NCBI GenBank assembly: GCA_030596395.1
Contig: JAUVKF010000008.1
Span: 188-64,187 of the forward strand
DNA length: 64,000 nt
Source of the DNA: Chlorobiota bacterium
Lineage (GTDB): Bacteria > Bacteroidota > Bacteroidia > Bacteroidales > F082
Direction of reading: 5' to 3'
Positions 1 to 12,298 of the stretch are shown here, in pieces. Numbering within the stretch: the first letter of the stretch is position 1; each line of letters opens with the position of its first letter. The translations under genes and the position numbers were made by a program. The notes under the pieces were generated by a model, which was given only the letters and a program-made list of their open reading frames with translations, made no database searches and had not been told where the DNA came from.

Positions 1-1332
1 ATATTTAAATTACATGAACCGCAGCATGGGATAGATGAAAGTCATCAAAAAGAGACTTATATCTATATGTTTTTTAGTTATGGCTATTATGAAAACCTGG
101 GTGGAGAGAACAATAAGCGGAAATATATACCCTTAAAATATAGCACTGGTAAAAAGATAAAACCTACTGATTGGGAAGACCGGCCTTTTTATCGAGCGAA
201 AAAAAATTCGTTTGAGGAAGCCATTTTGTTAAATTGCAGACTGGATATGCTAGAGGATGAAATCAATAAAATTTATCGGGAATACGAACAAAAAGGCTTG
301 TTACCTGATCCTGCACAGCTTAAAGAACACCTTGATCAGTTAGTAGCCAATAAAATAAAACGGCCTGTCAGGGTAATGAACGATTATATTTCAAACTTCA
401 TAGTGGAGGCCAGCCGGGGCAAAAGACTTACTGCAAAAAAAACCAGGTACCGGAAACAATCCATTAAAAATTTACAGGGATTCTATGTCCAGTTTCAAAA
501 GTATCAGAAGAGCATATCCCAAACCCTGAATTATGAACAGGTAACTGTGGAATTCTTAAAGGACTTTATTAAATATTTTACTGATAAAGGCTATAGCCAG
601 AATACAATATCAAGGCATATTAAGCACTTGAGAATGTTAATGAGAGCATCGAGAGAAGAAGGATTGCACGACAACATTGAAATTGATAGCGGGCGATTTA
701 AAGTTGAACCTGTCGAAGTAGAGCGCATTTTTTTAAATGAGGAAGAAATACAAAGACTTTACGAATTAAACCTATCTAAGGAGCCTGTTTTGGAATTGGT
801 TAGGGATGTGTTTTTAATTGGGTGTTATATAGCACAACGGTACAATGACTATCGTAATATTAAGAAAAAATTGTTGATAAAACTTGAGGATAAAAGTAAA
901 GGAATAAAAATCTTTCAGTCAAAAACAGGAAAAAGTGTATTGGTGCCTTTGAGGCCAGAAGCCGACCTTTTATTAAAAAAATACAATTACAATCTACCTC
1001 ACACCTATGAGCAATTGATTAATACGAAAATGCAAATTATAGGTGAAATGGCTGGAATTACTGAGATGAAAAAAACCAATGAAATTATTAATGGTAAAAG
1101 GATTACGAAAATGGTACCCAGGTATAAACTAATTAAAACTCATTCTGCACGGCGATCGGGTTGTACCAATATGTACCTGGCAAATATTCCAGTGAATGAA
1201 ATAATGGCAATCTCAGGTCACCAAACAGTACAGGATTTTTTAAAGTATATAAGAACGACAGAAATACAGCTTGCAAATAAATTATCCAGTCATCCATATT
1301 TTTTAAATCCCGGTTTAATAATTGCAAAATGA
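1..1332 (+). CDS. Tyrosine recombinase (phage-type integrase); 5' end probably lies outside the window
   Basis: The frame of the 67..1332 ORF stays open back to base 1 (IFKLHEPQHGIDESHQKETYIY precedes the first Met), so the N-terminus is probably cut by the window edge. KYSTGKKIKPTDW resembles the Bacteroidota integrase arm-binding N-domain. Catalytic signature in the C-terminal half: IAQRYNDY (Arg), HSARRSG (His-x-x-Arg), ISGHQT...FLKYI (His ... Tyr). Confidence 0.85.
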   Translation: MFKLHEPQHGIDESHQKETYIYMFFSYGYYENLGGENNKRKYIPLKYSTGKKIKPTDWEDRPFYRAKKNSFEEAILLNCRLDMLEDEINKIYREYEQKGLLPDPAQLKEHLDQLVANKIKRPVRVMNDYISNFIVEASRGKRLTAKKTRYRKQSIKNLQGFYVQFQKYQKSISQTLNYEQVTVEFLKDFIKYFTDKGYSQNTISRHIKHLRMLMRASREEGLHDNIEIDSGRFKVEPVEVERIFLNEEEIQRLYELNLSKEPVLELVRDVFLIGCYIAQRYNDYRNIKKKLLIKLEDKSKGIKIFQSKTGKSVLVPLRPEADLLLKKYNYNLPHTYEQLINTKMQIIGEMAGITEMKKTNEIINGKRITKMVPRYKLIKTHSARRSGCTNMYLANIPVNEIMAISGHQTVQDFLKYIRTTEIQLANKLSSHPYFLNPGLIIAK

Positions 1333-1371
1333 AAAGTTATTGATGTATAAAAATGAAAAACGCTCTTAGCA

Positions 1372-1415
1372 AACAGCCCGTAAAACTCAATCTGAAATTT
1401 ACGGGCTGTTTTATT
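1372..1415 (+). terminator. Rho-independent terminator after the integrase gene
   Basis: 13-bp perfect stem aacagcccgtaaa (1372-1384) / tttacgggctgtt (1398-1410) followed by ttatt, 40 nt after the integrase stop. Confidence 0.7.
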
Positions 1416-1466
1416 GGTTGAGATACCAAGCGTACATTGTAGGGTTGTTTGTTGTTTTCCGTAGGA

Positions 1467-2099
1467 TTATTTGTATTTATTTTTATGAATTAAAACATAA
1501 TCTGACTTAACAGGAAAAAACAGAATTGTCTTATGAAAATCATGACAGCCAACCCCAACGTCAGTGACCAATTCAATCTCATATATTTTAGATTCATCAA
1601 TTGTTGACATTTTTGCTTTAAATATAACTCTCAAATAGGGCTTCTCAATTATTACATACTTTTTTTTCATCATTTCCTGTACAGGATCATTTATAAACAT
1701 TTGAGTAAAACCACTAGTTTCCCCTGGTGGAATTATAAAATATTCATTATCAGGATTAGCCGATTCTGAACTTGAAATTTTATAATCCCCATAGAACAGT
1801 TCATGATCAACATCAAATAGTTTTATCGGTATGTTTGATTTGTTAGTATAAATTGCATTAAACCCAGAAGGGGGATTATCACAGTCTGTATTTCCTGAGA
1901 ATGTTACCCAATTGAAATCTGAAAAAACAAGAACAGGCTCTAAAAACGAACTTAGATTTTGTTCAAATGATTTTAAAACTTTAGCGGTTTGATTTGATGA
2001 ATGAATAGAATAAATAAATCCTGCAATTGCTATTAGTGCAATAGCATAAGTTGCTAAATAATTAAAAATTATAAATTTTTTGCTTAATTTTTTTTTCAT
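1467..2099 (-). CDS. Hypothetical membrane-anchored protein (islet cargo)
   Basis: 210-aa ORF. Lys-rich N-terminus plus one hydrophobic helix (FIIFNYLATYAIALIAIAGFIY). The remainder is beta-rich with no motif I recognise. Very AT-rich codon usage. Confidence 0.55.
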   Translation of the reverse strand: MKKKLSKKFIIFNYLATYAIALIAIAGFIYSIHSSNQTAKVLKSFEQNLSSFLEPVLVFSDFNWVTFSGNTDCDNPPSGFNAIYTNKSNIPIKLFDVDHELFYGDYKISSSESANPDNEYFIIPPGETSGFTQMFINDPVQEMMKKKYVIIEKPYLRVIFKAKMSTIDESKIYEIELVTDVGVGCHDFHKTILFFPVKSDYVLIHKNKYK

Positions 2100-2518
2100 T
2101 TGCGGAATTAAATTGTGTTATTCCCGCAAGTTATTAAATTAACTGCATTTTCACGACTATTTTCAACAAAAAGAAAGTTGAGGTATCATGTTATTTTGAC
2201 ATCAATCTAACATTAGGAAATGGGTTTAGGTGTTTTGTAAATATCAAAAAAAAAAAACAACACCAAGAAGCTCTTTTCCGCTTTTAAAACGAGAAGAAAT
2301 GATAAATACCTGGTGAGATATCCTGAGAAAGATGAAAAGGGTGATAACTCAATTTCATTCATGCAGTTTGCTTTAGGTGTGTTTACAATTATGGAAATGG
2401 CATTCTCACCAGATATGAAGCTGAGTGAGTTTACTGATCTGAAAACCCTTGCTGAGAATCAAGCACAGGAATATAAGAAGGCTAAAAAGACGGCAATAAG
2501 GAGGTAATCTTTTGCACT

Positions 2519-3355
2519 TTATTTTGTAAGAGCCTTCAATCCGACCATTAACATAAGTGAATCATTGAGAGACCTATACCAAAGATCTACCTCTTTTCTC
2601 CTAATGGCATTGATCAATTCTCTACTGTTTTTAAATTTATTTGTTCTAAAATCATAAATCCAATCAGTTTTTTTTTGCTGAATCCATACTATTGAAGTTG
2701 GTCCACCAATTTTATTAATATCGTTTTGGTCTTTTTCTGAGGAAGCCAGATCTTCTATATAAACTTTTATAAAAGATATAGCTTTATTAATGTCAGCATA
2801 TTTGAGAAATTGATTTACAAAAGACAAATTATTGCCGTTTTTTAAATTTATTCTATAACCAGATATTATAGAATCAATACAGTGCTTATCATACCAGTAT
2901 ATAACTGGTATAGATTTATTATACCCACATATAAATATTGTATTCGTTTGGAGGATATAGAAATCATCTCCGGATAGTTTATTTTCAGCAAATTTAAGTA
3001 ACTCATTATAGAAATTGCCGATATCAACTTCTCGGATGGTTTCTTTTTTAAAATCCTCAAAAAGACCAAAAAAACTAGTATTGTTAAATGAAAATTGACC
3101 TGACATAGCGAGTACTATATCGTTATATTGGAATAATTTAGGTGATTCATCATAATAAGCAGCCACACTTCCGTTATTATCAAAAAAAACAGCACGCGAA
3201 TCAGATCCAACTATAATTCCATCATTGCAAATAGCAGCCATAATAAGTGTTCCATGTATCTTATTATTGATCTTAGAGGAACTGCTAATTTTAATCGGAA
3301 ATAGAATAAATAAAAGGAATATAACAAAAGAATAGAAAGTGATATTGTTTTTCAT
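2519..3355 (-). CDS. Proteasome-beta/HslV-like Ntn-hydrolase fold protein with N-terminal signal/anchor
   Basis: 278-aa ORF. A hydrophobic N-terminus (FYSFVIFLLFILFPIKISS) is followed by HG|TLIMAAICNDGIIVGSDSRA...PKLFQY...MSG. This matches the proteasome-beta pattern Gly(-1)|Thr1, Asp17 (D52 here) and a Lys near position 33 (K73 here). Later, KIGGPTSIVWI resembles the SGG-plus-hydrophobic strand of the same fold. Confidence 0.5.
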   Translation of the reverse strand: MKNNITFYSFVIFLLFILFPIKISSSSKINNKIHGTLIMAAICNDGIIVGSDSRAVFFDNNGSVAAYYDESPKLFQYNDIVLAMSGQFSFNNTSFFGLFEDFKKETIREVDIGNFYNELLKFAENKLSGDDFYILQTNTIFICGYNKSIPVIYWYDKHCIDSIISGYRINLKNGNNLSFVNQFLKYADINKAISFIKVYIEDLASSEKDQNDINKIGGPTSIVWIQQKKTDWIYDFRTNKFKNSRELINAIRRKEVDLWYRSLNDSLMLMVGLKALTK

Positions 3356-3607
3356 TTAACACTAATTATGATTACACATGAAAGTTACAAAAAATTTCTA
3401 TCTTCTTTCTCAAATCATGACTAAGAATTAATCAGCAATGAATCCCTGGCACAAAAGAAGAGGTATTACAGAACCAAAGAAGGAAAAACCAGTAGAAGGC
3501 AATAAATTATTTCCACTATTGCATTGAAAGTCGGTATAAAGAAAGTGTTGGAAATATTACTGAAAACTGAAATAGTTAACAAATATTCAACCCCTTAAAC
3601 GACCCCT

Positions 3608-3649
3608 AAGAAAAAACCCGTTACTTAACATATTATTAAATAACGGGTT
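3608..3649 (-). terminator. Rho-independent terminator of tRNA-Cys
   Basis: Stem aacccgtta (3615-3623) / taacgggtt (3641-3649). Read on the minus strand it is followed by TTTTTTCTT. It lies 15 nt downstream of the tRNA 3' end. Confidence 0.65.
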
Positions 3650-3663
3650 AGTATTTTTATAAG

Positions 3664-3734
3664 AGGTACCGAGCGGATTCGAACCGCTGTACATGGTTTT
3701 GCAGACCACTGCCTAGCCACTCGGCCACGGTACC
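3664..3734 (-). tRNA. tRNA-Cys (anticodon GCA)
   Basis: The reverse complement GGTACCGTGGCCGAGTGGCTAGGCAGTGGTCTGCAAAACCATGTACAGCGGTTCGAATCCGCTCGGTACCT folds as a cloverleaf. Elements: 7-bp acceptor GGTACCG/CGGTACC; anticodon stem GTGGT/ACCAT with loop CTGCAAA (anticodon GCA); T-arm AGCGG-TTCGAAT-CCGCT; discriminator U (the Cys identity base). CCA is not encoded. Confidence 0.93.
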
Positions 3735-3778
3735 AAAATAAAATCAGGAGCGCAAAATTAACAAAATATCAGAATAAT

Positions 3779-4186
3779 TTAATCTGATTTTCTTGATAGC
3801 CTCTTCATCCAGAACCAATGGAAAAGAAAAAGGAGGATTGTAATGATAACCAGAAGCCCATTTACAATTATCGAACGAAAAGCATCATGTTTGACCTTTG
3901 AAATAGCATCTTGTTTGGCAGCCTCATACATCGAATTAAGTGTTACATCATCAAGGGTGAGTCCGTGTTCAGGATCCAGCGACTTCATAATGTCAACTTT
4001 ATAATTGTCAAAAGAAGCCAGGCTCGGAGAGTCCTTTCCATAAGTGCGGTAGGCATTTATCGGATCAGTAAGATCCATTAACGAATAAACCATTGAAGTG
4101 GCGCAAATCAAAAATGTAATTACCGCGACAATACATAACGCATAACCATAAATCATCTGAATTTTCTGGGTTTTGTCCTTTTCCAT
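3779..4186 (-). CDS. Hypothetical two-helix membrane protein
   Basis: 135-aa ORF with hydrophobic helices near both ends (YALCIVAVITFLICATSMVY; IIVNGLLVIITILLFLFHWFW). No recognisable catalytic motif. Confidence 0.5.
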   Translation of the reverse strand: MEKDKTQKIQMIYGYALCIVAVITFLICATSMVYSLMDLTDPINAYRTYGKDSPSLASFDNYKVDIMKSLDPEHGLTLDDVTLNSMYEAAKQDAISKVKHDAFRSIIVNGLLVIITILLFLFHWFWMKRLSRKSD

Positions 4187-4266
4187 AGTTGTAAATTTTT
4201 GGTTTGAGATTATAATAACTAACGAAATTACAACATGACAAATAAGAAGTCAAGCTTTCATGGTGA

Positions 4267-4458
4267 TTATTTGCCCGATTTAGCAAGGGTTTTTAAACAT
4301 TCAAGGCATAAACAGGAATCAAACTCTTTGTTAATTTCATCAAGGACAAGGGGCGGAACATCAATCTCAAAACACCAGCATTTGCCCGATTTACCGCAAT
4401 CGAATTTATTGCCACAACGTGGACAGATTTCTTTTTCAACCAGTTTCTTATTCATCAA
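4267..4458 (-). CDS. Cysteine-rich CWC-family small protein
   Basis: 63 aa with CPRCGNKFDCGKSGKCWCFE...CLCLEC, the Cys pattern I associate with the cysteine-rich CWC family. Its ATG overlaps the folB stop (ATGA at 4455-4458). Confidence 0.6.
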   Translation of the reverse strand: MMNKKLVEKEICPRCGNKFDCGKSGKCWCFEIDVPPLVLDEINKEFDSCLCLECLKTLAKSGK

Positions 4459-4805
4459 TAGTCGAGTTCAAGGCTAACAAAATCAATCTTGCCACCCAGG
4501 GGTGGGTTTAATTTTCTGATCTTTATTCGGGCGCTAATAATTACTGGAAACTCATCCCGGATACGGTTTAAAATTCTTCTTCCTACATGCTCAAGTAATT
4601 TCGAAGGCGTTTTCATCTCCACTTTTACCAGCGAATAGATTGTTTGATAATTTACTGTATTGTGTAAATCATCTGTCGATTCTGCTTTAGATGTATCCGT
4701 TTTCAAAAACAGGTCAATACTAAATTTGGTACCAATAATCGCCTCTTCTTTAAAACAACCATGGTAAGCGAAAAACTCCATTCCTTCAATAGAAATCACC
4801 GACAT
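4455..4805 (-). CDS. folB: Dihydroneopterin aldolase
   Basis: 116 aa. The N-terminal IEGMEFFAYHGCFKEEAIIGTKF and the overall size are typical of FolB. Confidence 0.75.
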   Translation of the reverse strand: MSVISIEGMEFFAYHGCFKEEAIIGTKFSIDLFLKTDTSKAESTDDLHNTVNYQTIYSLVKVEMKTPSKLLEHVGRRILNRIRDEFPVIISARIKIRKLNPPLGGKIDFVSLELDY

Positions 4806-4825
4806 GACAATTACATTAAAGTTCT

Positions 4826-6370
4826 TTAAATATTAATTGTTTCTTTTCTTCCAAGGTTTATTAATCCTTTATCAATTCGGTTTAAGGTTTCGTCTTTTCC
4901 AATCATGGCAACAATGTCGAATAGGTGCGGACCTTTTAACGCCCCGACAATTAGTAATCTGAAAGCATTCATTACCAGCCCAGTACCTAACTCGTTTTCT
5001 TCAATCCATGTTTTTAAAATGGTTTCAATATTTGAAGATGTAAAGTCATTTATCCCTTCTAAAACTAATTTTAACTGATGCATTTCATCATAGGATGTGT
5101 CTTTCCACCTCTTTTTAACAGCCTTTGGGTCATACGATTCGGGTGCAACAAAAAAGAACGAAGAATGATCCCATATATCTTCGATGAAATTAGCCCTTTC
5201 TTTTACCATCCCAATAACCGTTGCAACAAATGTAGAATCGGTATTTGATACCTTTTTAGATTTAAGAATTGGAATAAACAGCATTGCTAAATAATCATCG
5301 GTTTTTGTGATCAGATATTGATGGTTAAACCATCTGGCTTTATCCGGATCGAACTTTGATCCTGATTTACCAACACGCTCCATTGAAAAAGCTTCAACTA
5401 ATTCATCCATATTGAAAAGCTCTTTTTCGTCTCCCGGATTCCAACCCAAAAGAGCCAGCATATTGATAAAAGCGTCAGGAAAGTAACCGTCTTCCCTGTA
5501 ACCACTTGAAATTTCGCCCGATTTAGGATCTTTCCACTGCAAGGGGAAAACCGGAAATCCAAGCCGGTCACCATCTCGCTTACTTAATTTACCATTTCCT
5601 TCGGGTTTAAGCAACAAAGGTAAATGTGCAAATTCTGGTGCTTTCCAGTCAAAAGCATCATAAAGTAATTTATGCAACGGAAGCGATGGCAACCACTCCT
5701 CACCCCTGATCACATGGCTTACTTCCATTAAGTGATCGTCAACAATATTGGCCAAATGATAAGTTGGCATGCCATCCGATTTAAACAATATCTTGTCATC
5801 AAGAACACCAGTATTCACTTTGATTTCACCGCGTATCAGGTCATTTAATATTATGTCTGAATTTGCAGGCATTTTAAAACGAATGACAAATGGTGTGTCT
5901 TTGTTTAATAATGACTGAAGTTCTTCCTGACTCAGCGTAAGTGAGTTTCTTAACTTCTTGCGTTCGATAGCATTGTAAATAAAAGTTTTTTTCTCTGACT
6001 CATAACTTTTTCTTATTTCATCCAGTTCTTTGCCTGTATCAAAAGCATAGTAGGCATGGCCTGAATTTATAAGGTCAAAAGCATATTTTTGATAAATGCC
6101 TTTTCTTTCTGATTGGCGATAAGGGCCAAATGGCCCTCCTTCAACAACACCCTCATCAAATTTAATTCCACACCAATTAAAAGCGTCAATGATGTATTGT
6201 TCTGCCCCTTCCACAAAACGGTTTTGGTCAGTGTCCTCGATACGAAGAATTATTTCCCCGCCTTGTTTTTTTGCAAATAAGTAATTGTACAAAGCAGTTC
6301 TAACACCGCCAATATGCAGGGGGCCGGTTGGACTGGGGGCAAACCTTACCCTTATTTTGTTGTGATCCAT
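4826..6370 (-). CDS. gltX: Glutamate--tRNA ligase
   Basis: [24 protein letters not shown] (HIGH motif) and GKLSKRDG (KMSKS motif). 514 aa, as expected for the Bacteroidota type of GltX. Confidence 0.92.
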
Positions 6371-6899: not shown

Positions 6900-8879
6900 T
6901 TATTTAACAAACTTTCTTGTAAAGCTGTACTGCCCTTCTGTAATGTGTATAAAATATATTCCAAGAGAAAGATTTGATGTGTTGTAGTGAATATATTTTT
7001 GGTTTGAATTCTGCAGAGAAAGTGTTTTACCTGACAGGTCGGTAATCCTGATTTCTTTTTGCTTATTTGATTGGTTTAAAAAGTAGATATTCAAATAATT
7101 GTTTACCGGATTTGGACCGATACTAAAATAAACCGGAGATTCAGTTTCAGCAACAGACGGATAAATACTGCCAACTTTTTCCATGGTCCAGTCTTCCGGA
7201 TCAACAATAATGTCTGTTACTTCTTTGCTTGTGTAAACCGAAAAACTGTTAATGTTATCAGTTTGGATAAACTGAACAATTGTGTCGGTACCATCGTTGA
7301 AAACCAATTTATAATCCATAAGCATCTCGAAAAAAAGAGTTGCCGTTGTTGAAGGTGTTTGCGTAACAGTCATATAAAAAGCTCCCTCTGATGTAGAATA
7401 TTCGATATCATAAATGGGATATCCTTGTCCGTAATACCATTGATCGAAAAATTGTTCAAAGTCCATTCCGGTTACATCTTCAGCTACATTTTTGAAGTCA
7501 TCACCGGTTGCTGTGCTGTCAGTAAATTCTATCTGAAATGTTTTCAAAACATTAAAAAACATGTCATCGTCCTGTATTTCATGCCTTAATGTATGAACAA
7601 TTGCAGCGCCTTTATCGTATGATAACCTTCCGTTGAATATTCGCCATTGGTCACCCATGTCTTCGCTGATTTGGTCCTCGGGGATATAAGTGCTACCACC
7701 CGGTTGGGATATTGCTCTATTTTGAGCATTGGATATAAAAACCCTGCCGCTTTCCCATCCATGAATATATTCCTCAGCAAGGTAATTTGAATAAGTTGCA
7801 AAGCCTTCATTAATCCAGACGTCACTCCATGTAGCACAGGTTACATTGTCGCCAAACCACATATGACCTAATTCATGTGCTACCAATCCAAAACCGAAAC
7901 CCCCTAATGTAGTCATGGTTTGGTGCTCCATTCCACCACCCAGCTGGGTCAGACAGTGTCCGTATTTTTCTTCATGGAATGGATAAAGAATAAAAAGGTC
8001 AGAAAACAATTCAACCATTTCGTTGGTAGCATCCATGCCAGCTTTGTTGTTTTCCAAACAATTAGGTGCATCATAAATAAAATTTTGTATAAGAATAGAA
8101 TCACCATTCATCGCATCAGGATGTGCATAGGTATTGTATTCCTGATATTCCGAAACAGCAAATGAGATGAGATAATATGCAATCGGATATTTAGACTTCC
8201 ATTCGTAGCGGGTCATGCCATTACCAAGATTGACCACGTTTGTCAAAATGCCCTGCGAACCAGCCATATTGGTAGAGTCAGTCGTTAGAAAAACCCAGAC
8301 CGAATCTGCTTTATCTTCAAGAACCTGTTTTACCGGAAACCACTTTTTTGCACCAAAAGGTTCGGATAATGACCATGTAACATGCTTTTGATATTTTTCA
8401 CTATAAGCATGACTAAGCGTTGAAAGACCACTACCTGAACCAGGATCACCATGGTAAAAAATCTGGACTGTAAAGGCTGTGTTTAAGCTGATTGATGTAA
8501 CAGGGACCATAACATTATCTCCTTCAATGATCGTATCATTCGTGTAATTTACCCCGTCGATCAGGATCGTATCAATAATTAAATCAGGAATTAGTTCGAA
8601 CGCAAAAGTGTCTAATTCAACAACTGATTTAGCGTTAATTGTAACATTTCCTGAAATATAAGTTGAGGTATTTGAGACCTCTATATCCAGATGATAAAAC
8701 TTTACATCGTAATGATAAAGCAAATCGCTTTGTAAGATATACAAATGTTCAGGAGACAAAACTCCACGATCCTGCGGAATATGAGAACATTTTTGCTCAA
8801 TATTGTAATTGGTATTCCATTGTCCAAAAGTGCTGGCTATCGTTGATAATAGAATAACGGAAAGAAAAACTCGTTTCAT
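6900..8879 (-). CDS. M1-family zinc aminopeptidase with T9SS C-terminal sorting domain
   Basis: Signal peptide, GGMEHQTM (GxMEN-like), HELGHMWFGD (HExxH) plus WINEGFATY (distal Glu). The C-terminal ~80 aa (FSIGPNPVNNYLNIYF...GIYFIHI...RKFVK) look like a T9SS sorting domain. Confidence 0.85.
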   Translation of the reverse strand: MKRVFLSVILLSTIASTFGQWNTNYNIEQKCSHIPQDRGVLSPEHLYILQSDLLYHYDVKFYHLDIEVSNTSTYISGNVTINAKSVVELDTFAFELIPDLIIDTILIDGVNYTNDTIIEGDNVMVPVTSISLNTAFTVQIFYHGDPGSGSGLSTLSHAYSEKYQKHVTWSLSEPFGAKKWFPVKQVLEDKADSVWVFLTTDSTNMAGSQGILTNVVNLGNGMTRYEWKSKYPIAYYLISFAVSEYQEYNTYAHPDAMNGDSILIQNFIYDAPNCLENNKAGMDATNEMVELFSDLFILYPFHEEKYGHCLTQLGGGMEHQTMTTLGGFGFGLVAHELGHMWFGDNVTCATWSDVWINEGFATYSNYLAEEYIHGWESGRVFISNAQNRAISQPGGSTYIPEDQISEDMGDQWRIFNGRLSYDKGAAIVHTLRHEIQDDDMFFNVLKTFQIEFTDSTATGDDFKNVAEDVTGMDFEQFFDQWYYGQGYPIYDIEYSTSEGAFYMTVTQTPSTTATLFFEMLMDYKLVFNDGTDTIVQFIQTDNINSFSVYTSKEVTDIIVDPEDWTMEKVGSIYPSVAETESPVYFSIGPNPVNNYLNIYFLNQSNKQKEIRITDLSGKTLSLQNSNQKYIHYNTSNLSLGIYFIHITEGQYSFTRKFVK

Positions 8880-8971
8880 AATTTACAATTTATGCAGTAA
8901 TTGATGTTTATATTTGCCAAAAGTATAAAAACGTTTTTTGTCCGACATTGAAATAATTTGATTAGTCGTTT

Positions 8972-11900
8972 GTGAACCAGGAATATTACATACTCATCAA
9001 AAAGCTAAAAGGCTTTGTAAGCAAATACTACACGAATTTGATTATCAAGGGCCTGATTTTGAGTGTTGCGATTATTCTGACGATGTTTCTATTGGCCAAC
9101 ACATTCGAATATTTCGCTTGGAATAATATTCTTATCCGAACTATTCTATTTTATGTAATCAGTTCACTTACCTTGTTGATAGTAATCCTTTATGTTGCGA
9201 TTCCTTTATTCAAACTGGGAAAAATCGGAAAGACGTTGAATTTTCAGGAAGCCGCTAAAATTATTGGCGATCATTTTCCGAAGATTAGCGATAAGCTACT
9301 GAATACTATTCAGTTAAAATCAATTTACGAGGCTTCTGAGAGCAGTAAATCTGTTGAATTACTTTCCGCAAGTATTGATCAGCGGGCATCTGAACTAAGC
9401 CCGTTGCCATTTAAAAATGCCATAAATTTTAAACAAAACCTAAAGTATCTGAAGTTTATTGTCGCCCCGGTTCTTGTTATAGTTTTTATTTTAATTCTAT
9501 TTCCCGCATTCATTGTCGAACCATCAAACCGCATTGTAAACTACAATGAGCACTACACAAAACCATTACCATATACTTTACACATTGAAAATGAAAAATT
9601 AGAAGCGCTGCAAAAGGATGATTTTAACTTGATTGTAAGATCTGATGGGGCGGCTATTCCGGCAGAGATCTATATTCATGATGGGAATTACAGATATGCA
9701 ATGGCAGGCCATGCAAAAGGAAAATTTAGTTATACATTTAAAAGCCTGAGTAACGATATTTATTTTACGATTAACACTGATGATTATACAAGTGAAAGTT
9801 TCCACCTGACTGTCCTTCCAAAACCTACAATATACAGCTTTGATGTATTATTAAACTATCCTCATTACCTGAACCGAAAAAAAGATATAATTGAAAATTC
9901 AGGAGACTTAATAGTTCCTGAAGGCACTGACATTAAGTGGTTGATTTATACAAAGGACACAAGACAGATCATATTTAAACGGGAAGATGAGAAAATTCCT
10001 CTTGATGTTAGCGATAACAATATTTTTCAACATAGGATTAAAGCAGAATCAAACTTTTGGTATTCATTATTTGCTAAGAATGAACATGTAAAAATTCAAG
10101 ATTCATTAAGTTTTTCTGTTCAGGTAATAAAAGACGAGTATCCTTCTATTGAGGTAAGTCCTCTTCAGGACGAAACCCAATATGGTATTATTTTTTTTAA
10201 CGGTTCAATAAGTGATGATCATGGCTTTCACTCGCTAAAATTTTATTATCGAAAAGACAGTGTTATTGAAGTGGCATGGACGAGTATCGACCTGAGTATT
10301 GATAAAAGACTATCAAAACAGGCTTTTAGTTACGCTTTTCAATCCTCTGATTTAAATTTAATGCCGGGTGAAGGCATAACCTATTATTTTGAAGTTCGTG
10401 ATAATGATGAAATTAACGGTTTTAAAAGGGTAAAAACGAGTACGTACCAATTTCATTTAGATGGCATTGATGAAATTGAAGATAAATATGAAAATATTTC
10501 AGATAAAATCAAAGAAAAGATAGAAAATGCCCTTAAAGAATTAGAAAAACTAAACAGGGAACTTGAGGAGAAACGTGAAGATTTGTTTGAAAAAAAGGAA
10601 ATAAGCTGGACAGATAAAAAGCAATTGTCTGAACTACTGGAGAAGCAGGAAATAATTCAAAGCCAAATAAACGAGCTCAAGAAACTTAATGAAGAGTTAA
10701 GTAATTACGAAGATTTACTAAATAAAGAAAACAGTGAATTACTTGAAGATAAAATCGATGAACTAAATAAAATGTTCGATCAATTGTTAACAGAGGATTT
10801 GGAAAAAATGAAGGAGGATCTGGAAAAGATTGATAAAGAAAAAATAAGCGAACTCCTCCGAGCTCTTGAAAAGAGAAACGATGAATTAAAAACTGACCTT
10901 GAAAAAAACCTTGAAATTTATAAACAGCTCGAACTGGAAAAGAAAATACAAGAGTCAATAGATAAGCTTGATAAACTTGCTGAAGACCAAAATGAGTTGG
11001 CTGACAAAACTCTGGATAGTGAATTAGAGGAAGAACAAGCACTCAGCAAACAAGAAGAAATCAAAAAAAGATTTTCCGATATTGAAAAAGAACTTGAAGC
11101 AGCTGAAGAGTTAAATAGTACAATGGAGCAACCTTTTGATCTGAATACAGGTCATGAAATTAGAGATACTATTAATAACGAATTGAATCAAGCAAATTCA
11201 AAACTGAGTAAAGGCAAGCAGAAAAAGGCATCTCAAAATCAAAAACAGGCAGGAGAGAAAATGGAAAAGATGGCCAATGACCTGGGAATGATGATGCAAT
11301 CGGCAATGATGTCAAGGATGGGCGAAGATGCTGAAAAAATAAAGAAGATTTTAGACAATTTGCTTGATTTAAGTTTTAATCAGGAAAGTTTGATGGAGAT
11401 CATTAACGAAACAACCTTAAACGATCCAAAATATGTTGAGAATTTAGCTGAATTACAAATAATTAAGGATGGTTATCTGATTTTACACGATTCGTTGATC
11501 GCAATCAGTAAACGACAGATGGCTGTACAACAATTTATTGTCAGAGAATCAGACAAAATTAATTTGCATATTAACAGGGCTTTGCTATATTTGCAAGATA
11601 GAAGACGAGGTCAAGCCCTTAACGATCAGCAATATTCGATGACTTCGATGAACAATTTAGCGCTGATGTTATCAGAATCACTTGACCAAATGCAGGCCGG
11701 AATGAAAATGTCAGGTAAAAACCCTGGTCAGTCATGTCCAAACCCGGGAGAGGGTAGCCCTGGATCATTAGATGAAATACTAAAGATGCAACAGGGAATG
11801 AATCAGGGGATGGAAAAGGGTGAAGGAAAAAACGGCCTGGAAGGTGAGAAAGGACTTAATCAACAAACTGAAGCGCTGGCCAGAATGGCTGCTTTACAGA

Positions 11901-12298
11901 ACGAAATAAGAAAGAAGTTGGGTGAGTACCTTAAAGAGCTCGAAGGAAGTGAAGGGAGTAGCGGAGATTTGAGCAAACTGCTTGACGAAATGAGAAAAAC
12001 AGAGGAAGACATCGTCAACAGAAAAATTACGAAGGAAACGCTGGAAAGGCAAAAACATATAGAAGTAAGGCTGTTAAAATCTGAAAAGGCGAAACTGGAA
12101 CGGGAAAAAAAAGAAAAGCGAGAATCAATTGAAGGAATTAACAGAAAACGAACTGGCTCAGAAACAGATTTAAAATTACAAAACAAAAAAACAAACAAAG
12201 AGGACTTTTTACAAACCATTCCAATTGAATTAACGCCTTATTATAATGACTTGCTAAAAAAGTATTTGTACAAACTAGAAACTGATAATGGTAGCTAA
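8972..12298 (+). CDS. Large membrane-anchored coiled-coil protein (DUF4175-like, from memory only)
   Basis: 1108 aa with a GTG start. Two N-terminal TM helices and a third TM around residue 165. About 300 aa of Glu/Lys-rich heptad-like sequence (residues ~500-760). Gln/Met/Gly-rich tail. Confidence 0.6.
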   Translation: MNQEYYILIKKLKGFVSKYYTNLIIKGLILSVAIILTMFLLANTFEYFAWNNILIRTILFYVISSLTLLIVILYVAIPLFKLGKIGKTLNFQEAAKIIGDHFPKISDKLLNTIQLKSIYEASESSKSVELLSASIDQRASELSPLPFKNAINFKQNLKYLKFIVAPVLVIVFILILFPAFIVEPSNRIVNYNEHYTKPLPYTLHIENEKLEALQKDDFNLIVRSDGAAIPAEIYIHDGNYRYAMAGHAKGKFSYTFKSLSNDIYFTINTDDYTSESFHLTVLPKPTIYSFDVLLNYPHYLNRKKDIIENSGDLIVPEGTDIKWLIYTKDTRQIIFKREDEKIPLDVSDNNIFQHRIKAESNFWYSLFAKNEHVKIQDSLSFSVQVIKDEYPSIEVSPLQDETQYGIIFFNGSISDDHGFHSLKFYYRKDSVIEVAWTSIDLSIDKRLSKQAFSYAFQSSDLNLMPGEGITYYFEVRDNDEINGFKRVKTSTYQFHLDGIDEIEDKYENISDKIKEKIENALKELEKLNRELEEKREDLFEKKEISWTDKKQLSELLEKQEIIQSQINELKKLNEELSNYEDLLNKENSELLEDKIDELNKMFDQLLTEDLEKMKEDLEKIDKEKISELLRALEKRNDELKTDLEKNLEIYKQLELEKKIQESIDKLDKLAEDQNELADKTLDSELEEEQALSKQEEIKKRFSDIEKELEAAEELNSTMEQPFDLNTGHEIRDTINNELNQANSKLSKGKQKKASQNQKQAGEKMEKMANDLGMMMQSAMMSRMGEDAEKIKKILDNLLDLSFNQESLMEIINETTLNDPKYVENLAELQIIKDGYLILHDSLIAISKRQMAVQQFIVRESDKINLHINRALLYLQDRRRGQALNDQQYSMTSMNNLALMLSESLDQMQAGMKMSGKNPGQSCPNPGEGSPGSLDEILKMQQGMNQGMEKGEGKNGLEGEKGLNQQTEALARMAALQNEIRKKLGEYLKELEGSEGSSGDLSKLLDEMRKTEEDIVNRKITKETLERQKHIEVRLLKSEKAKLEREKKEKRESIEGINRKRTGSETDLKLQNKKTNKEDFLQTIPIELTPYYNDLLKKYLYKLETDNGS

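Follow-up and report, generated by a model that had tools for sequence, protein, structure and literature searches.

A solitary islet gene encoding a proteasome-beta-type Ntn hydrolase with a predicted export signal or membrane anchor

The gene at 2519..3355 (-) of the window, by which we mean the whole 64,000-nucleotide stretch analyzed here, from an uncultured Bacteroidia bacterium, encodes a proteasome-beta-type Ntn hydrolase fold homologous to 20S beta subunits. The open reading frame has an ATG start and specifies 278 aa, and its assignment is based on profile searches, an AlphaFold (AF2) model, and Foldseek comparisons. We propose that the product is the precursor of an extracytoplasmic, self-activating peptidase of the proteasome beta type that would be exported through the Sec pathway; on the sequence evidence we give this reading a probability of about 0.7. 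The protein belongs to a family of 275 representative clusters.

Fold and active site of a proteasome beta subunit

The homology is seen most clearly with the family profile, which was required because searches with the window protein as a single sequence stayed below threshold. By itself, the protein scored 12.3 bits against PF00227 (gathering cutoff, 22.4 bits; E=0.13), gave E=0.38 against the PDB by phmmer, matched PHROG 1040, "peptidase HslV family," weakly (E=0.009), and had no match in NCBIfam or PADLOC. A protein homolog search with the window protein found only itself, and the family profile found four proteins. The profile, built from 60 relatives, retrieved 20S beta subunits from the PDB with E=3.1e-11. 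This alignment was collinear over profile positions 29-230, about 200 residues, and set the Thr column of the family against the first residue of mature 8oix_L. Using hhalign, the profile matched the beta subunit of the archaeon T. acidophilum at E=1.2e-4 over 172 columns; against an approximate sequence of E. coli HslV the value was E=0.11 over 53 columns. The PF00227 match suggested as a check by the first-pass annotation was obtained for 29 of the 60 family sequences scanned (E<0.01), but not for the window protein alone.

The AF2 model of the window protein (pLDDT, 93.7; pTM, 0.86) contains the Ntn alpha-beta-beta-alpha sandwich. When the PDB was searched with Foldseek, the first 50 matches were without exception 20S subunits, each with a probability of 1.0 and with target-normalized TM-scores of 0.50 to 0.68. 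The top matches were unprocessed beta5 precursors, and the closest structures overall were catalytic beta5/beta1-type subunits. The best match in BFVD (TM-score, 0.71) was to a phage protein named "Proteasome beta type-2 subunit." The model also shows three helices (residues 95-105, 112-126, and 129-136) at the place expected for the H1/H2 helix pair, and a C-terminal addition of roughly 45 aa with a helix-strand-helix at about residues 244-277.

The motifs from which the proteasome-beta identity was first read are all found in this ORF: H34-G35-T36, D52, R54, K73 followed by LFQY, LAMSG86Q, and KIGG(217-218)PTSIVWI, with exactly 16 residues from T36 to D52. Based on the profile alignment to 8oix_L, Thr36 (codon at 3248..3250 [-]) is the predicted N-terminal nucleophile, that is, Thr1 of the mature enzyme. 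The mature domain would comprise residues 36-278 (2522..3250 [-]). Mapping by hhalign to the T. acidophilum beta subunit equates D52 with Asp17, R54 with Arg19, K73 with Lys33, and G86 with Gly47, and the domain also carries GG217-218. The window protein therefore has the Thr1/Ser1-Asp17-Lys33 catalytic triad and the oxyanion-hole Gly47, as T36, D52, K73, and G86.

The catalytic and processing residues are near-invariant across the family. Conservation was counted in 153 family sequences, with totals that vary by column. The nucleophile column holds Thr in 107, Ser in 38, and Ala in 1 of 146 sequences; of the 145 members aligned there, 139 have Gly-1, and His, Lys, or Arg predominates at position -2. 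Among about 152 sequences, Asp or Glu17 was found in 151, Arg19 in 150, Lys33 in 152, and Gly47 in 150. Conservation does not extend to Ser129, Asp166, and Ser169 of the proteasome, whose places are taken by Y/F167, I213, and I/V216. With profile, fold, and active-site conservation in agreement, the assignment as a proteasome-beta-type Ntn hydrolase is borne out. We infer from the sequence that the window protein would process itself autocatalytically and be catalytically active.

Start codon, N terminus, and predicted export

The signal and nucleophile are encoded ahead of an internal methionine, M39, which is the start in the sole public gene call for this exact sequence, on a Logan contig. 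That call drops both the signal and Thr36. If M39 were the real start, the product would be a cytoplasmic 240-aa protein with neither a signal nor an N-terminal Thr, an inactive proteasome-like fold. The gene caller did choose M39 despite having 682 bp of upstream sequence, but the reading frame stays open back to M1, and the 38 codons before M39 encode exactly the signal and His-Gly-Thr motif conserved in the family, which supports M1 as the start. Another family entry that appears short, P0136, is itself a start-call artifact, as its longer twin P0155 has the signal. We regard initiation at M39 as highly improbable. Start calls at internal methionines thus form an annotation trap, deleting both signal and nucleophile, and may be why the feature went unnoticed. 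Upstream of the gene there was no exact site for the Bacteroidota -7 promoter motif TAnnTTTG, and the motif was not enriched across the window.

Residues 1-21 (3293..3355 [-]) consist of a short n-region (MKNN) and a 17-aa hydrophobic h-region at residues 5-21, ITFYSFVIFLLFILFPI, with a Kyte-Doolittle 10-mer maximum of 3.58. This segment is predicted to be either a Sec signal peptide or an uncleaved signal anchor. It is followed by a linker or propeptide, KISSSSKINNKIHG, at residues 22-35 (3251..3292 [-]), which ends in His(-2)-Gly(-1), is delimited by the conservation of Gly-1, and has a strand modeled at residues 30-34.

The readout for export is a set of hydrophobicity and charge heuristics applied to N termini, and it covers the 138 members in which 14 or more residues precede the nucleophile. 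Of these, 131 begin with a strongly hydrophobic stretch (Kyte-Doolittle 10-mer of >=2.0). The h-region has a median length of 13 aa (quartiles, 11 to 15). In 37 members it ends in a small residue plus Gln, the Bacteroidota-style ...SQ/AQ motif, and lipobox-like motifs occur in 18. The flank on the N-terminal side is more positively charged than that on the C-terminal side in 72 of the 138 members and less positive in 23. A mixture of SPase I-like and lipoprotein-like N termini on one conserved domain is, as judged from these motifs, the pattern of exported proteins. At other loci, secreted or outer membrane proteins are encoded nearby: in L002 a type IX secretion (T9SS) cargo gene precedes the homolog by 30 bp, and L008 contains SusC-like receptors.

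The apparently short members were considered as evidence of cytoplasmic forms, a lead that was dropped: one of them is the artifact P0136, and one is genuine. In the genuine case, P0094, an in-frame stop 14 codons upstream shows that the signal is truly absent. With at least this one exception, export is consequently not universal in the family.

As a cleavable signal, the N terminus of the window protein would be unusual. Its h-region, at 17 aa, is longer than the 7-15 aa expected of a Sec signal peptide, it lacks an ...SQ/AQ site and any clear cleavage motif, and it carries one Lys before the h-region (K2) and three within 12 residues after it (K22, K28, and K32). The suggestion of an N-terminal signal or anchor stands at the family level, and in the window protein itself the segment may be either a cleavable signal or an uncleaved anchor.

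These same features allow a different topology, in which the hydrophobic N terminus is a reverse (N-out, C-in) or non-translocating anchor and the domain sits in the cytoplasm, attached to the membrane until self-cleavage releases it. The 17-aa h-region has the length of a transmembrane helix, and its more positive C-terminal flank would, by the positive-inside rule, favor a cytoplasmic C-terminal domain; the same charge bias occurs in the 23 relatives counted above, and signal-less cytoplasmic members exist. Against this, the family median of 13 aa is too short to span a membrane, N-terminal flanks are the more positive ones in 72 members versus 23, and many members have signal-peptidase-type ...SQ/AQ ends or lipoboxes. 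Orthologous domains are unlikely to reside on opposite sides of the membrane. We consider a cytoplasmic domain quite unlikely. From the family pattern we infer the export and topology of the window protein, which probably works outside the cytoplasm.

The tRNA-Cys islet and the loci of relatives

The gene lies in a 2.2-kb islet bounded by tRNA-Cys (GCA anticodon; 3663..3734 [-]; ARAGORN; Rfam RF00005, 62.5 bits), the presumed integration target. The 3' end of the tRNA gene, TCCGCTCGGTACCTC at 3663..3677 (-), forms the tRNA-side copy of an att-like repeat. The distal boundary is a degenerate direct repeat of it, TACGCTTGGTATCTC at 1420..1434 (-), identical at 12 of 15 positions and located in the 134-bp gap between the gene for a 210-aa protein and an integrase gene. 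This was the only other match with <=3 mismatches in the 64 kb; 0.22 such matches are expected by chance, and no shuffle reached 2. A repeat search detected no long att repeat of >=14 nt, and the degenerate 15-mer came only from alignment with a related locus together with the mismatch search.

Among 309 segments of 2.2 kb, the islet is the poorest in GC, with 29.6% (mean, 37.3%; standard deviation, 2.8%). In the related metagenome-assembled genome L013, the gltX-folB-135aa-tRNA-Cys synteny is kept, the islet is absent, and an orthologous integrase gene lies 62 bp past the tRNA. No homolog was present in L013-L025. The repeats of the tRNA 3' end at both ends, the deviant composition, and the absence from a relative show that the islet was horizontally acquired.

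The islet had been described as mobile and adjacent to an integrase. Its mobile character is upheld, but the integrase is not its own. This tyrosine recombinase (67..1332 [+]; Pfam Phage_int_SAM_5, Phage_integrase, and Arm-DNA-bind_5; PHROG 1) is encoded immediately beyond the repeat-bounded segment and shares 62% identity with the orthologous integrase at the same site in L013. Because the integrase is outside the repeats and conserved in the relative, the 2.2-kb segment looks like a non-autonomous cassette or the remnant of a tandem insertion. The integrase gene and the gene for the 210-aa protein are convergent, and between them lies a terminator-like hairpin (1371..1411, no strand assigned), an inverted repeat with 19-nt arms that are 89% complementary.

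The 210-aa protein, encoded at 1467..2099 (-) as the second cargo of the islet, is an orphan with an N-terminal membrane anchor. A search of 5.8 billion proteins found only the protein itself, there was no significant family match, and the single-sequence AF2 model (pLDDT, 39.8) was unusable. A 64-aa ORF inside the islet (2313..2507 [+]) is of doubtful reality; it has no family match, and the gene calls of the Logan contig include it.

A conserved partner was sought and rejected, the 210-aa protein included. All-against-all comparison of ORFs from the first seven independent homolog loci yielded no shared ORF, whether an ATPase or another partner, and no recurring partner appears among the genes of two further loci. 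Searching all retrieved loci by tblastn with the 210-aa protein and the 64-aa ORF likewise turned up nothing shared. The 210-aa protein, whose co-occurrence the first-pass annotation had asked about, accompanies none of the homologs. No alpha subunit, accessory ATPase, or tagging gene lies beside the window gene or at the homolog loci examined. The window gene behaves as a solitary accessory gene without a fixed partner.

Some relatives have mobile or defense-related surroundings. The closest homolog (41% identity) adjoins genes for an OLD-family ATPase/TOPRIM nuclease and a UvrD-like helicase and a SIR2 gene, a defense-island-like setting. Another lies about 700 bp from an integrase in a prophage-like region with ParB, RNase T, YqaJ, GH19, and a 1693-aa tail-fiber-like protein, and a third is on a phage-like 49.7-kb contig. 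Together with the place of the window copy as cargo of a tRNA-Cys islet, these contexts would fit an exported factor with which islets and prophages guard their host against superinfection or against competitors, for instance as a periplasmic protease that destroys phage or toxin proteins on their way in. However, further homologs sit among ordinary chromosomal genes, adjacency to defense genes was seen only once, and PADLOC gave no match. By tblastn there was no match in the phage (50,697 records) and plasmid (72,556) collections. A scan for the alignment pattern was negative for viral contigs and for GTDB genomes, its single match being a short metagenome fragment. A dedicated role in mobile elements is, in our judgment, very unlikely. 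The window protein belongs to a sizeable family that is only sometimes carried on mobile elements.

Proposed function and relation to known proteasome homologs

In the extracytoplasmic peptidase that we favor, the hydrophobic N terminus would direct the protein across the inner membrane by Sec. Most relatives would carry a cleavable SPase I signal, and some a lipoprotein-type one; the window protein may keep an uncleaved anchor. The short linker ending in His-Gly would remain attached after translocation, and the folded domain would then cut itself between Gly35 and Thr36, as proteasome beta subunits do, giving Thr36 as both nucleophile and free amine. The same cut would free the domain from any remaining tether. 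Acting together with Asp52, Lys73, and the oxyanion hole at Gly86, Thr36 would hydrolyze peptide bonds in the periplasm and need neither ATP nor an unfoldase partner.

This proposed logic has precedents among unrelated enzymes. Penicillin G acylase, PvdQ, and gamma-glutamyltranspeptidase are exported by Sec, expose an N-terminal nucleophile by self-cleavage, and hydrolyze amides in the periplasm independently of ATP. Unlike the window protein, they are much larger two-chain enzymes with a Ser or Thr nucleophile in a different active-site context; they are unrelated to it in sequence and were absent among its PDB, profile, and Foldseek matches.

Such enzymes lend some weight to a further alternative, that the protein is exported and self-processed but does not degrade proteins. 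One form of this alternative is an Ntn amidase or acylase whose substrate would be a small molecule or envelope component, with acyl-amides, peptidoglycan stem peptides, a siderophore, or a signal as candidates. The other is a sequence-specific transpeptidase or ligase resembling connectase. Exported Ntn hydrolases elsewhere are indeed periplasmic small-molecule amidases, and the proteasome-like family already includes a monomeric ligase, connectase. The non-conservation of Ser129, Asp166, and Ser169, the absence of an unfoldase partner, and, in the model, the three helices at the H1/H2 position and the C-terminal addition are also consistent with a changed activity. However, Thr1, Asp17, Lys33, Gly47, Arg19, and Gly-1 are exactly as in peptide-hydrolyzing beta subunits, the nearest structures are catalytic subunits, and the neighborhoods of homologs suggest no particular small-molecule pathway. 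We therefore consider a non-proteolytic enzyme unlikely and retain the extracytoplasmic peptidase as the preferred reading.

To our knowledge, all characterized members of the proteasome family (20S, HslV, Anbu, BPH, and connectase) act in the cytoplasm or an organelle matrix. In most members activity is controlled by assembly and often also by ATP-driven unfoldases. The family described here may represent the first recognized extracytoplasmic proteasome branch, made up of periplasmic, ATP-independent Thr1 enzymes that would be made as zymogens tethered by a signal or a lipid, free themselves from the membrane by Gly/Thr autocleavage, be widespread in Bacteroidota, and be moved by islets and prophages. 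This broader claim is tentative, and we would put it slightly below even odds. If true, a large conserved branch would show the proteasome scaffold recruited to the ATP-free bacterial envelope, and if the enzymes also form rings, a proteasome-like chamber would exist outside the cytoplasm. The proposal raises the questions of whether self-processing goes together with export and frees the enzyme from its tether, whether the enzyme is a monomer or a ring, and what its substrate is. A secreted, self-activating Thr protease or ligase could become a tool enzyme, as connectase has.

An exported member of this family had been flagged as unusual, and this fits the literature searched, in which we found no description of exported or periplasmic proteasome homologs. 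The 2021 census of 22 new homolog families is silent on signal peptides, which it nowhere mentions, and reports propeptides only in proteasome beta subunits and HslV (Fuchs, Alva, and Lupas 2021, PMC8665760). In that work, Anbu, BPH, and the 22 further families are stand-alone prokaryotic homologs with no identified AAA+ partners or informative context, some of them spread by phages (PMC8665760). They share the core fold and catalytic residues of the window family. None of the 22 is described as predominantly Bacteroidota, and they are stated to have no propeptides (PMC8665760), unlike the family described here, which may correspond to one of them (a PMI, CPH, or AAH cluster, for example) or be separate.

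Other bacterial homologs differ from the window protein in size and context. HslV (ClpQ) belongs to the same superfamily of bacterial Thr1 Ntn peptidases, but it is cytoplasmic, has about 175 aa, and begins with Met-Thr, and the window gene has no adjacent hslU or AAA+ gene. The Anbu operon contains ATP-grasp, alpha-E, and transglutaminase-like genes. In contrast, the neighbors of the window gene are a tRNA, the 210-aa orphan, and an integrase, and no Anbu-operon genes occur at the homolog loci.

Among known proteins, the catalytic 20S beta subunits (PF00227; MEROPS T1), specifically beta5/beta1-type precursors, are the best match in both sequence and structure. They share with the window protein the Ntn alpha-beta-beta-alpha fold, the Gly(-1)/Thr1 site, Asp17, Arg19, Lys33, and Gly47. 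They differ in having a cytoplasmic assembly propeptide where the window protein has a predicted Sec-type signal or anchor, and in a mature chain about 40 aa shorter, along with the Ser129, Asp166, and Ser169 positions. Near the window gene there is likewise no alpha subunit, AAA+ partner, or Pup or ubiquitin machinery, and we know of no canonical 20S proteasomes in the phylum of the host, Bacteroidota. In canonical beta subunits, self-processing awaits assembly of the ring; the window protein may be monomeric or ring-forming. The His at position -2 of the window protein is presumably also present in yeast beta5. PDB titles among the Foldseek matches name beta5-H(-2) mutants.

Fold and active site of the window protein

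The minus-strand ORF at 2519-3355 is real: it starts with ATG and encodes 278 aa, with an N terminus that reads MKNNITFYSFVIFLLFILFPIKISSSSKINNKIHG followed by TLIMAAICNDGIIVGSDSRAVFF. The first-pass annotation, made from the sequence only, had described a signal-anchored proteasome-beta/HslV-like Ntn hydrolase in a mobile islet, and we found every motif that it named in place: G35-T36, D52 (16 residues past T36), R54, K73-LFQY, LAMSG86Q, and KIGG(217-218)PTSIVWI. Searched alone, the protein gave weak matches, below curated thresholds, that were collinear and mutually consistent, namely PF00227 (12.3 bits against a cut-off of 22.4 bits; E=0.13; residues 34-86), a Trichomonas proteasome beta by phmmer against the PDB (E=0.38; residues 135-233), and PHROG 1040, 'peptidase HslV family' (E=0.009). 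It had no match in NCBIfam or PADLOC.

An exhaustive HMMER scan of representative proteins, 1.84 billion in all, enlarged this single protein to a family: 275 representatives scored E<=1e-3 and 90 of them E<=1e-10, with most lengths between 250 and 290 aa. One member is labelled '20S proteasome alpha/beta subunit' by JGI, and other members carry the label 'hypothetical protein'. A profile built on an alignment of 60 of the representatives (A1) reached E=3.1e-11 against proteasome beta subunits in the PDB, aligned across profile positions 29-230, and the family Thr column falls on the first residue of mature 8oix_L; of these 60 members, scanned one by one, 29 matched PF00227 at E<0.01. An AlphaFold2 model of the window protein, based on A1, reached pLDDT 93.7 and pTM 0.86. 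Its best 50 Foldseek matches in the PDB were exclusively 20S subunits (probability 1.00, target-normalised TM-scores up to 0.68), headed by yeast beta5 mutants in which the propeptides are kept, and among viral structures a phage protein named 'Proteasome beta type-2 subunit' matched best (TM-score 0.71). The Ntn-hydrolase reading thus holds on the profile and the structural matches, with PF00227 below cut-off for the protein taken singly. By hhalign, the family profile aligned with the archaeal beta subunit of T. acidophilum at E=1.2e-4 over 172 columns and with E. coli HslV at E=0.11 over 53 columns. Taken together, the hhalign, PDB profile, and Foldseek results place the family closer to genuine proteasome beta subunits than to HslV.

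We counted active-site conservation in an alignment of 153 sequences to the family HMM. G35, the Gly(-1) equivalent, is G in 139; T36, equivalent to the Thr1 nucleophile, is T in 107, S in 38, and A in 1; and D52 (Asp17) is D in 143 and E in 8. R54 (Arg19) is conserved in 150, K73 (Lys33) in 152, and G86 (Gly47) in 150, while G217-G218, the Gly-Gly after Ser169, are G in 135 and 132. These conserved residues are those that define the proteasome-like family in a 2021 census (Fuchs, Alva, and Lupas; PMC8665760). Position -2 is mainly His, Lys, or Arg in the family, and the window protein reads His-Gly-Thr. The equivalents of Ser129, Asp166, and Ser169 are unconserved in the family (aligned positions Y/F167, I213, and I/V216), which speaks for an alternative that we consider unlikely, an amidase or ligase instead of a protease; the nearest known proteins, the catalytic 20S beta subunits, speak against it. 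At 243 aa, the mature chain exceeds a beta subunit by ~40 aa; in place of the expected helix H1/H2 pair the model has three helices (95-105, 112-126, and 129-136), and a predicted helix-strand-helix at 244-277 closes the C terminus.

A low-GC islet at tRNA-Cys

The window gene lies on the same strand as a tRNA-Cys(GCA) gene (3663-3734, minus strand). Its other neighbours are an ORF of 210 aa with a membrane anchor at its N terminus (1467-2099, minus strand), a doubtful 64-aa ORF (2313-2507, plus strand), and a tyrosine recombinase (integrase; 67-1332, plus strand). The 3' end of the tRNA (3663-3677, TCCGCTCGGTACCTC) recurs as a 12/15 copy at 1420-1434 (TACGCTTGGTATCTC), the sole other match with <=3 mismatches within 64 kb, against a chance expectation of 0.22. 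The segment between, 1420-3677, has a GC content of 29.6%, the lowest among 309 overlapping 2.2-kb windows (mean, 37.3%; standard deviation, 2.8%), and contains no integrase.

GltX encoded in the window shares 73% identity with its counterpart in an uncultured Bacteroidia MAG and 69% with those of Bacteroidales and Lentimicrobiaceae MAGs, which makes the host an uncultured bacterium of the Bacteroidia. The order gltX-folB-135aa-tRNA-Cys is kept in a related MAG (L013), in which an integrase (8817-10145) with 62% identity to the window integrase sits 62 bp beyond tRNA-Cys; in the window this spacing is 2.2 kb. No homologue of the window gene was present among 13 gltX loci of relatives. Because the segment is bounded by the tRNA repeat, has the lowest GC content, and is absent from these loci, and because an integrase occupies the same site in L013, we read the window gene as cargo of a small non-autonomous islet that has entered at tRNA-Cys, beside a resident integrase. 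The islet looks like a non-autonomous cassette or the remnant of a tandem insertion. Since the L013 orthologue stands at the same tRNA-Cys, the integrase, or its element, is older than the cargo segment. The mobile islet proposed earlier therefore gains bounds and a distinct composition and loses its integrase, which is resident next to it.

Whether the 210-aa neighbour accompanies the enzyme had also been asked; it was found nowhere else, including the homologue loci, and among 5.8 billion proteins it matched only itself, with no family match. A structure model from its sequence alone was too poor to use (pLDDT 39.8). At 4267-4458 (minus strand) lies an ordinary small Cys-rich CWC-family protein gene (PF14375, E=6e-11) that shares 4 nt with the end of the folB-like gene.

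Putative export leader and proposed processing

We judged export by simple features (hydropathy, charge, and motifs) of all family N termini upstream of the nucleophile. Among the 138 members with >=14 residues before it, 131 have a 10-residue Kyte-Doolittle mean of >=2.0. The uncharged h-region, typically 13 aa long (median; quartiles, 11-15), has the length of signal peptides rather than transmembrane helices and ends shortly before the nucleophile (median, 12 residues). Its N-flank carries more positive charge than its C-flank in 72 members, as much in 43, and less in 23. In 37 members the h-region ends with a small residue plus Gln, a signal-peptidase I (SPase I) pattern typical of Bacteroidota, and 18 have lipobox-like motifs (LTSC, LSSC, ISSC, and similar). 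As judged from these sequences, SPase I-type and lipoprotein-type leaders that interchange before one conserved domain are the signature of an exported protein, and most of the family is predicted to be exported on this ground.

Export is not universal. The propeptide of one member, P0094, is hydrophilic and 13 residues long, and this protein genuinely has no signal, as its reading frame is closed by a stop 14 codons before the Met; it suggests that exported and cytoplasmic forms coexist in the family. The P0094 gene (L027, 8001-8753) lies directly downstream of a ParE-toxin gene pair on a 1.8-Mb contig.

The window protein itself has an atypical leader, with an h-region of 17 aa, one Lys before it and three after, and no clear cleavage motif. 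This charge balance does not favour export, and the leader may be an uncleaved signal anchor. A membrane anchor that keeps the domain on the cytoplasmic side, an alternative we consider unlikely, would suit these features; the closest relatives (P0002, P0004, and P0006) have h-regions of 18-20 aa with the usual charge polarity. The hydrophobic leader of the first-pass annotation is thus borne out in most of the family; in the window protein, with its 17-aa h-region and +1/+3 Lys, it may be either a cleavable signal or an anchor.

A very unlikely alternative is translation from M39, the start of the public gene call for the exact window protein despite 682 bp of upstream DNA (Logan contig L026). 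This call drops the signal and Thr36 (codons 1-39, 3239-3355). Another truncated call in the family, P0136, is a start-call artefact, its twin P0155 having the full signal, and the window gene is affected in the same manner. Start-site errors may systematically conceal the export leader across the family.

The analysis establishes the fold, the homology, the conserved residues, the leader statistics, and the islet; export and topology, processing and activity, and the substrate and oligomeric state are our inference. The precursor would undergo Sec-dependent export, retaining a short linker that ends in His-Gly, and the Gly35-Thr36 bond would then be cut autocatalytically. Thr36, Asp52, Lys73, and Gly86 would carry out peptide or amide hydrolysis in the periplasm without ATP. 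However the leader is handled, this cleavage would release the catalytic domain, be it attached to a signal, an anchor, or a lipid.

Homologue neighbourhoods and known proteasome-like proteins

We examined nine independent homologue loci and the genes listed for the P0151 contig. The closest homologue (L001, 41% identity) lies with an OLD-family ATPase/TOPRIM nuclease, a UvrD-like helicase, and a SIR2-domain gene (72-5405); the first two form a Gabija-like pair, a defence-island-like setting seen once only. L002-L004 carry T9SS cargo proteins and a PLD-like gene. In L002 (913-4670), which may be a secreted-protein gene cluster, the gene for a 955-aa T9SS cargo protein (Por_Secre_tail) ends 30 bp upstream of the homologue on the same strand, and a second cargo gene follows. 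SusC-like receptors and a LytTR two-component system occur in L008, a three-gene block including DUF4325 in L010/L011, and ordinary chromosomal genes in L012, L027, and L028, with the ParE toxin pair upstream in L027.

A mobile-element-linked role in defence or exclusion is a further, unlikely alternative. The islet, L001, the phage-like 49.7-kb P0151 contig, and the prophage-like L009 (9497-12166), with an integrase ~700 bp downstream of the homologue, are settings that bear on it; the L009 homologue is placed where lysogenic-conversion genes typically sit. The L009 region also encodes ParB, RNase T, YqaJ, a GH19 lysin, and a 1693-aa tail-fibre-like protein. An all-against-all ORF comparison of the first seven independent loci gave no common neighbour, and the gene lists of L027, L028, and P0151 gave no recurring partner. 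The neighbourhoods compared contained no AAA+ ATPase, alpha subunit, or Anbu-type operon; in partners and in sequence, the window protein differs from the canonical proteasome, HslV, and Anbu alike.

The 2021 census lists 22 further proteasome-like families with uninformative gene context, which we compared with the window family by their description; it reports propeptides for proteasome beta and HslV only and nowhere mentions signal peptides (PMC8665760). A 2026 review of proteasome plasticity makes no mention of signal peptides, secretion, or the periplasm, and our full-text searches, with subscription-only literature and MEROPS outside their scope, brought up no account of any exported proteasome homologue. 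The sequences support a proteasome-type enzyme with a putative export leader, in a family that has been regarded as cytoplasmic throughout.

Elsewhere in the window, judged by translation only, a 659-aa protein (6900-8879, minus strand) combines a typical signal peptide (…STFGQ) with a HELGH zinc-peptidase motif and a T9SS-like sorting tail. It adjoins a 1108-aa membrane protein (8972-12298, plus strand) with a long Glu/Lys-rich coiled-coil region.
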